Positions 1,131 through 47,520 are shown, counted from the first letter of the stretch. The stretch is DNA of 64,000 nt from an uncultured Methanoregulaceae archaeon (GCA_963705255.1 OY970061.1:1024001-1088000), one strand, 5' to 3'. Numbers and translations: made by a program. Notes: generated from the letters alone by a model not told the origin.

Positions 1131-1872
1131 CGGTATCGATCGTGCTCAGGGGACCGATGTACGTCCCGTCGGCAAGGATGATCTCGGCTTCGTCCTGTTT
1201 CATGCACCGCGAGAGGGGCGAGAACGGGTTCTTCGTGATCTGGAGGATATCATAGCCGGCAATTTCGTTGAACGAAGGTACGAACAGGACGCGGGTGGGT
1301 GTTCCCGGGCCCGCAGGTTCCTGCAGGCCAAGTCTCTCCATATCGAGCCCGGCCCGGAGGTATGCCGGTGCCTGGAGCGCACAGCCGACATCATCCCTGA
1401 GGGAGAGGAGCGGGTGGTGGTGACCGACAACCATCAGGTGCCCTGATAGTGCCGCAGACGGGTACATGTGCCCGTGCAGGTACCCGACACCATCGATAAC
1501 CGCACCCTCTTTCGGCCTGAGCTCGTCTTTCCGGACGAAGCGCTCGATGCCGATATCGTGATTGCCGGGGAAGAGCACCAGGGGAATGCGGTCCCTGATC
1601 GACCTGAGGATTCCGGGCATCTCATAGAACTCCTGACGGGTGAGCGACGGGATGCTGTGCTTCACGTCGCCGAGCAGCACAAGAGCGTCCGCATCCGCCC
1701 GGTCGATCACTTTCAGGAGGCGTTCGAGCCTGTCGGCACTCCTGCTCCGGAAATGCAGTCCGTGTGCACGGAGGTCGGCCTCGATCCCGAAGTGGAGGTC
1801 GGCGACGATGAGCAGTCGCTCTTCCCCTTCAATCACGAGAGCCGGGCCATCACCGATAAATTCCAGTTTCAT
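1117..1872 (-). CDS. Metallophosphoesterase (calcineurin-like, Lhr-associated)
   Basis: ADLHFG, LLGDVKH, PGNHD, HGH and GHHHP metal-binding motifs; overlaps the lhr start. Confidence 0.88.
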   Translation of the reverse strand: MKLEFIGDGPALVIEGEERLLIVADLHFGIEADLRAHGLHFRSRSADRLERLLKVIDRADADALVLLGDVKHSIPSLTRQEFYEMPGILRSIRDRIPLVLFPGNHDIGIERFVRKDELRPKEGAVIDGVGYLHGHMYPSAALSGHLMVVGHHHPLLSLRDDVGCALQAPAYLRAGLDMERLGLQEPAGPGTPTRVLFVPSFNEIAGYDILQITKNPFSPLSRCMKQDEAEIILADGTYIGPLSTIDTDEGD

Positions 1873-2642
1873 AACCGTTTGACAAACCCCTTCTGGGGCT
1901 GGTAACACTCGTCTTCAACGATAAGTGATTCAATTGCTGACAAGACCGCGTCCCCGGGGATACCCCGGAGGGACGCAGCCCCGATGATCTCTTCAACTGC
2001 AATTCCTCTCGGCCCGCTCTGCACCTGCATCAGTTCAAGCACCAGTGCGCGGGCATCAGGCCGGCTCTCCGGTGGATTTGTGCCATCGGGACAGGTGCTC
2101 CGGACCGCTCCGTCAACCATCAGGAGCAGGTCCTCAAGCACGGCCGCGGTCACGGCATAGTGGCGGTATGCACGCGTGACCCGCGCATCCGTGCATTCTC
2201 CCTCAAGGGCACGGGACATCTGCTCAAGTCGTCCGAGCGTCGCTTCGGCAGTACCGAGGGTTATCCTGTCGCGCGTGGCACGGTCGATCACCCGGACATA
2301 CTCCGGGCGGACAGAGAGACTGACCGTCTGGTTCTTCTGGTATATCTGTGCCTGCCCGGTCAGGGATACGAAGGATGGCACGGGAATTTTTCTGAACGTT
2401 TCAGCAATGGCCGTACTCCTGCCCCCGCTTACGACATCGAATGCACCGGTGGGATCTGCCACCCGGCACCGGATCATATCCCCGGAATCGTTCACTTCGG
2501 TCAGGGCACCGGCAAGGTACATGAGGCGGCACCATGCACCACCCGGGGTAACCACCGCCGGAGGGGACCCGGGGTCACCACAGGGTGCCGACAGGGTCGA
2601 ACGGCTGAACTCGCCGGCAAATACTCGTGCTGTGCCTTCCAT
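1869..2642 (-). CDS. OB-fold RPA-like/RPA-associated protein with C-terminal winged-helix-like region
   Basis: ARVFAGEF...VVTPGGAWCRLMYLAGALTEV...RVADPTGAF pattern typical of archaeal RPA-associated OB proteins. Confidence 0.7.
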   Translation of the reverse strand: MEGTARVFAGEFSRSTLSAPCGDPGSPPAVVTPGGAWCRLMYLAGALTEVNDSGDMIRCRVADPTGAFDVVSGGRSTAIAETFRKIPVPSFVSLTGQAQIYQKNQTVSLSVRPEYVRVIDRATRDRITLGTAEATLGRLEQMSRALEGECTDARVTRAYRHYAVTAAVLEDLLLMVDGAVRSTCPDGTNPPESRPDARALVLELMQVQSGPRGIAVEEIIGAASLRGIPGDAVLSAIESLIVEDECYQPQKGFVKRL

Positions 2643-2787
2643 ACTCCGTAACAGGATTGTGGCGGGGAGATATTCAAGATATAGTCAGTGCCAAGCGGCT
2701 GAAAAGTCCTTAACAGCTTATTCATGTCGTATGATAATACAGAGCACGATCCGGGAGCCATCAATCCGCAATCTGTACGGACATTTT

Positions 2788-3395
2788 GACACTGAAGAAG
2801 ACAGGGATCCAACCAGAGATTGTATTGACAGATCATGACGATGAGAGAAAAGGTACTCTGTAGAGAGCCTGTCAGTGTCCATTTTTTGTAAAATACTTGA
2901 AGAGGCTATGAGGGTGACCCCCTCTCTCATGTCGCAGAACTCTGACGAGTTCTTCTCCAGTCTACTCTTCCCTTCGGGAACAGCAGTCTCCCCGGAGGGG
3001 GAGGCAGCGAAGATGCGAATGCATCTTCTCGATATCGTAGTCTGATGACTACTCAATCAGCCCAAGGGGTGCATCCCCTTGAATCTCTGAGAGGTCTTCA
3101 GACCTCGAAGAGGAGAAGGGAGGCAAGAGCCGACCTTCGACCCGTCTATTAGTCCCCCGTTCTCTTGAGAATTTCTCGCTAACCTTCTGAGTGACTATCG
3201 CATTATGGAGGAAATCTGCCGTTGCCCAAGGCAAGGGCAGATTCGAGAAGATGCGAGAGCATCTTCGCTGTGCCCTGGTGGCAGGCAATTCGAAGAACGC
3301 TGACGCGTTCTTCTCTTGTCTCCATGACTTCGTCATGTCGACATCCCCAAGAGCGTCATGACATTGTTCCAATGATTTTTACAGAGCCAAAAAAG
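2788..3395. repeat. Dense hairpin/palindrome array (structured ncRNA or REP-like cluster)
   Basis: About 12 short near-perfect stems, e.g. GAAGATGC-gaat-GCATCTTC 3009-3028, GAAGATGC-gaga-GCATCTTC 3247-3266, GAAGAACGC-tgac-GCGTTCTTC 3292-3313; enclosing pair TCATGACG 2833-2840 / CGTCATGA 3354-3361. Confidence 0.75.
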
Positions 3396-3419
3396 GCTCC
3401 TCTCGTAGTCCAGGACCCT

Positions 3420-3929
3420 TCAGATGACAGGTGGTTTGAGTGTCGGGTCAAGGGCAGTTGCATTCGAATATGCTGCTCTTGCCTCTTCAAGCCTTCCAAG
3501 GTTCCTGAGCGCATTCCCCTTGTTGAACCACGCGATAGACTGCAGGGTGGTCATGTTGCCCTTGTAGGAAAGCGCAGCGTCAGCTGCGGTAATAGCTTCG
3601 TTGTTCCGACCGAGTTCCACGAGTATCCCGGCCCGGTTTGCCTGGATGAGTGGGATGAGCGAAGTGGCGTTCAGGGTAAGGGCCTGGTCTGCATCAGACA
3701 GAGCTTCACTATAATTACCGGCGTTGGCCAGGTCGACACTCTTCGTATACAATGCCCCGGCCTGCTGGAATCGGGTGGCTTCGTCTTTTGGCGATGGCGG
3801 CTGGAAGGTCAAAAAGATCGCTGCCACAATCACAACTGCCGCAACCACACCGGCTACAAGCAGGTAATTCCGGATTTTTCCGGGGGATTTTTTTGGAGCG
3901 TTATCTGCCGGTTTTTTGGAGGGTTTCAT
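3420..3929 (-). CDS. Membrane-anchored TPR protein
   Basis: Basic N-terminus plus hydrophobic TM segment, followed by TPR motifs (AWFNKGNALRNLGRLEEA). Confidence 0.85.
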   Translation of the reverse strand: MKPSKKPADNAPKKSPGKIRNYLLVAGVVAAVVIVAAIFLTFQPPSPKDEATRFQQAGALYTKSVDLANAGNYSEALSDADQALTLNATSLIPLIQANRAGILVELGRNNEAITAADAALSYKGNMTTLQSIAWFNKGNALRNLGRLEEARAAYSNATALDPTLKPPVI

Positions 3930-47088: not shown

Positions 47089-47467
47089 TAGTTACGAATA
47101 CCATGTCTTCAAAAATATTTATTTCCCCTCTACTGCCAACCCGATCATCATCATCCACCGGTTACCGGAAAGATCAATTTAGTTACCCGCCATCTGTGCC
47201 GGTGTCATTCGGTGTCAAATTGAATCCCCAACATCCACTTTTTCATAGGTGACTCGGACTTACGATCCCCCGGAAAAATAACTGCCCTTAAAAAGCCCCG
47301 TTTGGCAATCTGAACCCATTTTGAAAAATCGGTTTTTTGAGGGTCGCATTTTTTCGCGAATTACAGCACAGTGATTTTGAATGAAGTCCATATTGTCCGT
47401 ATTTTGCTCATTTGAGGATCATTTCAGCCTCCGAAAAATGTCTCTTTATTGCCTTTTGGATGAGCGA

Positions 47468-47520
47468 TTGCTACCCGAAGGGTAGCAAGAGCTTGAGAAG
47501 AATGCCAGAGGCGTTCTTCG
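47468..47520. repeat. Two adjacent hairpins, one related to the 2.8-3.4 kb array
   Basis: TTGCTACCC-gaa-GGGTAGCAA; GA-GAAGAATGCC-aga-GGCGTTCTTC-G. Confidence 0.7.

Follow-up and report, generated by a model that had tools for sequence, protein, structure and literature searches.

BOX and BIME sequences are repeats that combine a few short modules in variable number and order, and they are highly structured, intergenic and clustered. Pneumococcal BOX and enterobacterial BIMEs, both modular mosaic intergenic repeats, are named in the MITE review PMC10969869, which also covers the Correia elements of Neisseria, MITEs that carry promoters and have folding transcripts. In archaea, the closest described systems are IS5-family MITEs from Methanosarcina and Methanococcoides, which measure 140-252 bp and have 0-3-bp duplications according to the available text of Kamoun et al. 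(2013; PMC3852290). In this report we focused on a hairpin-rich intergenic locus of an uncultured Methanoregulaceae archaeon, within a 64-kb window (the whole stretch of 64,000 nucleotides that was analysed, to which coordinates without a prefix refer) of its 2.6-Mb single-contig genome, hereafter G000. We are highly confident that positions 2854-3388 are one 535-bp copy of a miniature inverted-repeat transposable element (MITE), the non-autonomous passenger of an IS5-family insertion sequence (IS).

Members of this family resemble the archaeal MITEs, as far as the text of PMC3852290 available to us extends, in that they are short, non-coding and multi-copy, have 15-17-bp inverted repeats and share their ends with IS5-family IS. 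They differ in their length (159-644 bp), in their 8-bp duplications and in an IS-unrelated interior of reiterated hairpin modules, and the family is absent from the MITE table in that text. Like BOX and BIMEs, this MITE is modular, structured, intergenic and clustered, but its mosaic is enclosed by transposon-type inverted repeats and comes with a duplication of constant length (8 bp), and the stem base of its modules is constant whereas the upper stem is variable (90 interiors among 163 paired units). With the Correia elements, as portrayed in the accessible part of PMC10969869, it shares terminal inverted repeats (TIRs) as boundaries, a copy number of about 100-150 or more, the lack of coding sequence, a capacity to affect neighbouring genes and stable stem-loops. 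The difference is that Correia elements fold mainly via their long TIRs, whereas this MITE folds via a dozen independent internal hairpins; a promoter function for a box in its left end is weakly suggested by the sequence. No description of the family was found in the available text of the literature searched, including PMC3852290, PMC10969869 and PMC13343696, and supplements or ISfinder may list it. It is a new MITE family of a known kind, well explained and in kind ordinary.

The locus itself is a stretch of 608 nt (2788-3395) between two minus-strand genes. On one side lies the gene for a 257-aa protein with no Pfam match (1869-2642, minus strand), the first of a minus-strand cluster in which a Metallophos protein (metallophosphoesterase, 1117-1908) comes next. 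On the other side is a gene for a 169-aa TPR-repeat protein (3420-3929, minus strand; Pfam TPR_2, E = 3.4e-17), the stop codon of which is 31 nt from the element, and RFC, MCM and TatD genes are found on the plus strand from 5148. The original prediction of a non-coding array of about a dozen hairpins upstream of this minus-strand operon describes the DNA well: the element lies 211 nt upstream of the operon start at 2642; direct reading finds all twelve listed stems, each where it was predicted or a few bases away; several were recovered by the repeat search as well, such as the arms 3213-3226/3230-3243 (93% complementarity); and the four internal ORFs (56-112 aa) have no Pfam match at E ≤ 0.1. 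Folding is equally clear. As single-stranded RNA, the 608 nt reach -244.8 kcal/mol on the plus strand, against a mean of -187.9 for 20 dinucleotide shuffles (z = -7.40), and -247.7 kcal/mol on the minus strand (z = -7.90), with none of the 20 shuffles as good on either strand. The whole 64-kb window gave no Rfam match at the gathering score, and at permissive settings the best matches in 2600-3500 (E = 0.097-7.6) were all far under the gathering scores. The recurrent CTGATGA loops might have belonged to a hammerhead or a C/D-box RNA, an idea that was rejected because no such Rfam match appeared even at E ≤ 10.

Strong folding and a position upstream of the minus-strand operon are what speak for one of the two explanations originally offered, namely a large undescribed ncRNA such as a protein sponge, if this is taken to mean a single gene peculiar to the locus and connected with the replication/repair genes beside it. 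That explanation is refuted on two counts, and we give it practically no credence: about 64 related loci exist in the same genome, and the closest genome, G130, has no copy at the orthologous site, in spite of 97% identity across the operon and the DNA immediately upstream of it. In place of a candidate large novel ncRNA we arrive at a well-supported mobile-element annotation, by which dozens of comparable hairpin arrays in G000 and its genus are explained.

The repeated nature of the locus was apparent from BLAST of the region against its own 2.6-Mb genome, which gave 99 matches and, in a separate run, 127 HSPs at the roughly 64 loci just mentioned. The repeated part corresponds to positions ~2853-3395, and 2643-2852 is single-copy DNA. 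The hairpin array predicted for 2788-3395 is present, but 2788-2853 belongs to the single-copy flank outside the element; likewise, the pair TCATGACG/CGTCATGA, which had been thought to enclose all stems, exists (2833-2840 and 3355-3362) but does not bound the element, since 2833-2840 falls in the unique flank and the true ends are the TIRs at 2854-2869 and 3374-3388. When the nine longest copies are aligned, they define a discrete element with inverted ends, a conserved inner module at each end and interior blocks that are present or absent. The TIRs of the aligned copies are 15-20 bp long, with the consensus GGCTCTGnAGAAATCC / GGATTTCTnCAGAGCC, the left end reading approximately GGCTCTGyAGAAATCC and the right end GGATTTCTrCAGAGCC. 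With nhmmer profiles of the two ends, 52 left ends and 49 right ends were detected; pairing them yields 39 elements, 159-644 bp in length, with boundaries extrapolated where an end match is partial. The target-site duplication (TSD) is 8 bp long. Its two copies agree at all eight positions in 12 of the 39 elements and at seven in another 10, so that 22/39 have at least 7/8 matches, compared to 3.7% for mismatched partners; the other 17, some of which have ends extrapolated from a partial match, agree at six positions or fewer. These 8-mers are 73% A+T (45% genome-wide) and mostly runs of A or T.

The copy in the window displays each of these parts. It is flanked by the 8-bp TSD copies AGAAAAGG (2846-2853) and AAAAAAGG (3389-3396), which match at 7/8 positions. 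Its left TIR, TACTCTGTAGAGAGCC (2854-2869, plus strand), is degenerate, differing at 4/16 positions from the family consensus GGCTCTGTAGAAATCC, and is supported by both the copy alignment and a pattern scan, while its right TIR, GATTTTTACAGAGCC (3374-3388, plus strand), has a single mismatch to the consensus. The end profiles match the copy at G000 1026856-1026933 on the left (E = 1.5e-16) and 1027316-1027388 on the right (E = 1.8e-16). Inside the left TIR is a conserved module (2870-2931, plus strand) comprising a T-rich/TATA-like box, CATTTTTTGTAAAATA, at ~2880-2895 and then GAGGGTGACCCCCTCTCTC at 2910-2928; this module is kept across the 52 left ends, and further genomes of the genus contain 2907-2928 at 96-100% identity. 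The conserved module of the right end (3341-3373, plus strand) includes CCCCAAGAGCGTC at 3345-3357 and continues onward. Between the two modules lies a mosaic interior (2932-3340) of about 12 hairpins made from 25-30-nt palindromic modules, among which are GAAGA/TCTTC-based units at 2932-2958, 3007-3031, 3243-3270 and 3290-3316, with stems that can be read in the sequence, and tandem-GA hairpins at 3084-3143, where pairing is kept by compensation.

Comparison with G130, which is 94-98% identical to G000 over syntenic stretches, indicates that the family has moved since speciation. At the site of a 255-bp copy (G000 869448-869702), G130 is empty and has a single CAAAAAC, in the context ...ATCAAAAACCGG..., where the occupied site in G000 reads CAAAAAAC, the 255-bp element and AAAAAAC. 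G130 also has no copy at the locus of G000 854814-855355 or at the window's locus, and at neither can a clean empty site be drawn, the surrounding spacer being diverged in G130. Around the window's locus, identity to G130 is 97% from the operon to ~2695 and then ends; because it extends that far, the insertion cannot have disturbed the upstream DNA closest to the gene. As a separate observation, within 2696-3720 G130 either fails to align or shows only weak similarity, both in the spacer (2696-2853) and in the 3' portion of the TPR gene, with 94-97% identity on both sides, which suggests local replacement besides the MITE insertion. We also noticed a 412-bp insertion relative to the closest species at G000:C1:846142-846553, exactly at the ATGA stop/start overlap of two genes, where ATGA is duplicated on both sides and both genes are left intact; it contains GAAGA hairpins and the GAGGGTGACCCCCTCTCTC module, without a recognisable TIR.

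The parent of the family was found through its ends. Of 60 other genomes in the genus, 50 contain the TIR motif GGCTYTGNNGAAAYCC; there are up to 86 occurrences per genome and 17 in G000, and the reversed control is found in none of the 61 genomes. Two TIR pairs about 990 bp apart in different species delimit loci that are 88% identical, with homology that begins and ends exactly at the TIRs. DNA searches found ten full-length copies of this 990-bp IS in 8 of 108 genomes of the genus, one with a perfect 8-bp duplication, but no full-length copy in G000, only a weak match of 48 nt. Pieces of its ORF match Pfam DDE_Tnp_1 (E = 2.4e-14) and score 152.5 and 141.5 bits against the "IS5 family transposase" model of NCBIfam, NF033579, which has a cut-off of 140, and the parent IS thereby shows the DDE transposase of IS4/IS5 type that marks the IS5 family. 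An 8-bp duplication and a size of about 1 kb would presumably fit an IS5 subgroup, and we claim none for this IS. Its frame of ~315 codons is broken, each time at a different place, in all seven full-length copies whose frames were read. Because MITE and IS have only ~20 nt in common at each end, the MITE is not a simple deletion derivative of the IS. Elsewhere in G000, DDE_Tnp_1 is represented by only two fragments, and neither ISL3 (PF01610) nor IS256 (PF00872) transposases gave a match.

An IS6-family parent was initially guessed from the 8-bp duplication and the ends starting with GG. The two DDE_Tnp_IS240 genes of G000 (394-396 aa) and 28 homologous loci in relatives were examined, none of which is flanked by the TIRs of the MITE, and the idea was dropped once the IS5-type IS with exact TIRs had been found. 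These paralogues (G000:C1:2147365-2148549 and 2152908-2154094) are 78% identical in DNA and combine a cysteine-rich N-terminal half with a DDE_Tnp_IS240 / rve_3 domain; among 150 further genomes from the family, 22 have homologues, and flanking inverted repeats were looked for and not found. In the window, 47131-47220 (minus strand) is a short fragment with two stops that resembles the C terminus of an IS240-type transposase, and it is located near a solitary GAAGA hairpin at 47497-47519 (G000 1071497-1071519).

These ends are also found beyond the genus: an exact 20-nt left end is common to Methanomicrobiales and Halobacteria. In a species-representative genome collection it was found at 36 loci, 25 in Halobacteria and 11 in Methanomicrobiales, the latter records coming from Methanoculleus, Methanogenium and MAGs. 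Only one of the 36 also carries the left module of our MITE. DNA searches of plasmid and phage collections returned nothing similar. Incidentally, a Natrinema plasmid (NZ_CP100757.1, 167300-169300) has a 1671-bp stretch with the same 20-nt end and an inverted partner with two mismatches, within which there is a 240-aa ORF but no transposase; this may be a haloarchaeal non-autonomous element that has the same TIRs and carries cargo.

Taken together, the element exhibits all the MITE-defining features tested, and its parent those of an IS5-family IS. It has TIRs at both ends, a TSD of fixed length (8 bp; 7/8 in the window copy), small size, multiple copies and no internal transposase gene, the ORFs of the window copy being without Pfam match; a 990-bp IS with the same ends is found in sibling species, not within G000; and insertion polymorphism with an empty site is seen in G130.

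What sets the family apart is its unusually modular interior, which has no relation to the IS. It is put together, as a mosaic, from hairpin modules of 25-30 nt. These recur across copies in varying combinations, mostly collinear and at times repeated or inverted. The commonest module is TCGAAGA-stem-loop-stem-TCTTCTC, with GAAGA/TCTTC as its stem base. A strict search for GAAGA/TCTTC hairpins finds 178 in the genome, compared to 0-8 for fourteen control 5-mers. Defined by their flanks instead (CGAAGA, 8-26 nt, TCTTCT), there are 223 units, of which 163 are paired, meaning at least three further contiguous pairs, a state reached by 2.5% after shuffling of the interiors; three control flank pairs occur 3-26 times and are never paired. 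The 163 paired units have 90 different interiors. The predicted unit (GAG..stem..CG, or else its reverse complement, placed either way round) is genuine and present genome-wide: 90 units point one way and 75 the other, both can be found within one element, and there is no bias with respect to gene direction (41 vs 49). Across 121 genomes of the order, TCGAAGA(8-26)TCTTCTC occurs 154 times in G000 (control, 1), 104, 42 and 27 times in three others, and 0-21 times in the remaining 117.

Many of these hairpins lie outside complete elements. Of the 178, 57 are inside the 39 paired elements and 121 outside, and of the latter 58 have both flanks repeated elsewhere, 40 one flank and 23 neither, which places 155/178 units in contexts that are themselves repeated. 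Only 7 of the 121 fall within gene calls, and some are members of another repeat family, the second one described below, whose TIR is diverged. Only 33/112 GAAGA-hairpin loci have a TIR-like site in each flank at a distance of up to 700 bp, by a pattern allowing up to three mismatches that is noisy (1308 and 1214 sites vs 628 for the reversed control).

Hundreds of short palindromes in both orientations invite comparison with REP sequences, and the second of the two original explanations was indeed that these are ssDNA hairpin elements handled by an HUH/RAYT-type enzyme, which we assessed as REP/BIME-like elements spread by an HUH tyrosine transposase of the RAYT/IS200 type. The likeness is real, because TCGAAGA..TCTTCTC is a short, asymmetrically flanked palindrome present in 154-223 mostly intergenic and clustered copies in either orientation, as expected of REPs. 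The label "REP-like cluster" thus remains apt for repeated, mobile, palindrome-rich intergenic DNA in which GAGAAGA..TCTTCG is a genome-wide hairpin repeat, but the proposed enzyme does not fit, and the odds on such a mechanism are very long. No Y1 or RAYT gene was found: Y1_Tnp (PF01797) has no match in G000, G088, G052, G044, G130 or G020, of which the first four are the hairpin-rich genomes examined (controls matched, in 6 of 14 genomes). The array has TIRs and 8-bp TSDs, which are not made by HUH elements and are marks of DDE cut-and-paste, and there is an IS5-family parent in sibling species. Moreover, most units are embedded in larger repeats, unlike REPs. These units are also far more variable in sequence than the REPs of one species are known to be.

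The hairpins of the interior keep pairing while their sequences diverge, and the modules persist in great diversity, which is of wider interest. In 26 aligned copies of 3084-3143, which contains two tandem G-A hairpins, 94.4% of cells are paired, as opposed to 83.0% in shuffles and 32-49% with slid partners. Eight of the 18 pairs have changed on both sides, and the covariation score was reached by none of 500 shuffles; these copies are paralogous, so that individual cells do not count as independent. What looks like selection for pairing could also arise from self-templated correction of palindromes. Modules also come and go as units. Orthologous copies in G000 (866965-867487) and G130 have both ends in common and differ by three blocks of ~290, 53 and 56 nt, each consisting of whole hairpin modules, which indicates that module turnover outpaces divergence of the DNA on either side. 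Modules thus undergo shuffling, duplication and block-wise loss, for which slippage or recombination at hairpins is the probable cause, and it is this traffic in palindromes that gives the region its appearance of a dozen-hairpin array.

Compensatory pairing revives the question of an RNA product in another form. The element, whether or not it is a MITE, might be a structured ncRNA gene with its TATA-like box about 30-45 nt inside the left end and a start near the GAGGGTGACCCCCTCTC hairpin, acting via its hairpins, for example as a protein-binding RNA. The left end is conserved well past the TIR, including the A/T-rich box at a fixed position and the next hairpin, folding is strong on both strands, and many stems have tandem G-A/A-G mismatches on one strand, all of which, like the compensation itself, would suit such a gene. 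Tandem G-A/A-G mismatches are a motif known from RNA-protein sites. However, the TATA match is weak, with TTTATATA matched by 22/45 left ends at up to two mismatches and by only 2 at up to one. Single mismatches in stems show no strand asymmetry relative to element orientation (12 G-T vs 8 A-C), and thus give no support to an RNA acting from one strand. Further arguments against an ncRNA gene are that units occur in both orientations per element and without gene-direction bias, that the window copy is absent from the orthologous locus of G130, that modules are freely gained and lost between orthologous copies and that no Rfam family matches. On balance we consider this reading very unlikely.

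The MITE annotation also adds a target preference for A/T tracts behind archaeal genes. According to a crude home-made gene caller (2372 calls), 37 of the 39 elements are clear of genes, and the remaining two extend into them by 4 nt and 195 nt, respectively. They reside in 19 convergent, 19 tandem and 1 divergent spacers, the corresponding numbers for spacers genome-wide being 304, 842 and 335. Gene 3' ends that face an element are a median of 31 nt away (31/57 within 50 nt), and gene 5' ends a median of 95 nt (3/21 within 50 nt). There is no preferred orientation with respect to genes, which read into the R end 31 times and into the L end 26 times. Oligo-T/oligo-A tracts behind genes are archaeal termination signals. 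These observations can be accommodated in a simple mechanism, in which the IS transposase would bind the common 16-20-bp ends and mobilise the MITE in trans through a cut-and-paste reaction that leaves an 8-bp stagger between the cuts, preferentially into oligo-T/oligo-A tracts behind genes. Such insertions would be tolerated because the target is duplicated and a T-tract stays beside the gene. We can only infer mobilisation in trans, because all seven IS frames read are broken and no full-length copy of this IS was found in G000. The family is probably immobile in G000 now, since no cognate transposase was found there.

Proximity to stop codons could also reflect co-option of the hairpin modules into 3'-UTR elements, with read-through transcripts in which the upstream mRNA would be stabilised or terminated. 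REP/BIME sequences in enterobacteria do stabilise or terminate upstream mRNA. The 31-nt median distance after stop codons, the strong enrichment between convergent genes and the presence of very stable hairpins on either strand are consistent with such a role, but the target preference for A/T runs explains the position without selection, orientation is unbiased, and units outside paired elements follow spacer types roughly as these occur (21 convergent, 19 divergent and 64 tandem). We regard co-option as unlikely.

A plain MITE model nevertheless leaves two observations unexplained, the compensatory pairing and the 121/178 hairpins outside paired elements. A bolder reading, to which we assign a slim probability, is that the hairpin modules are an archaeal counterpart of REPs recognised by shape rather than sequence, maintained and copied by a structure-specific protein or RNA-binding factor, with the MITE as a mere delivery vehicle. 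The GAAGA/TCTTC base, often flanked by tandem G-A, would be the constant part, the upper stem would vary freely but always be paired, and the IS5-type MITE would deliver cassettes of modules into the terminator zone behind genes. This reading draws on the compensatory changes at 8/18 pairs, the 90 interiors, block gain and loss between orthologs and lineage bursts.

Two further repeats in G000 deserve mention besides the MITE family itself. A second hairpin-rich repeat family of ~450 bp (G000:C1:69950-70500, 622310-622860 and 111850-112230) has a diverged TIR, GGCTCTGGAGAAmCGGACAT, and different modules, and one of its copies abuts a member of the MITE family. Finally, G000:C1:1668309-1668628 is a tandem array of ~6.5 copies of a 49-bp unit with 98% mutual identity, in which every unit has one GAAGA/TCTTC hairpin and the flanks are unique.
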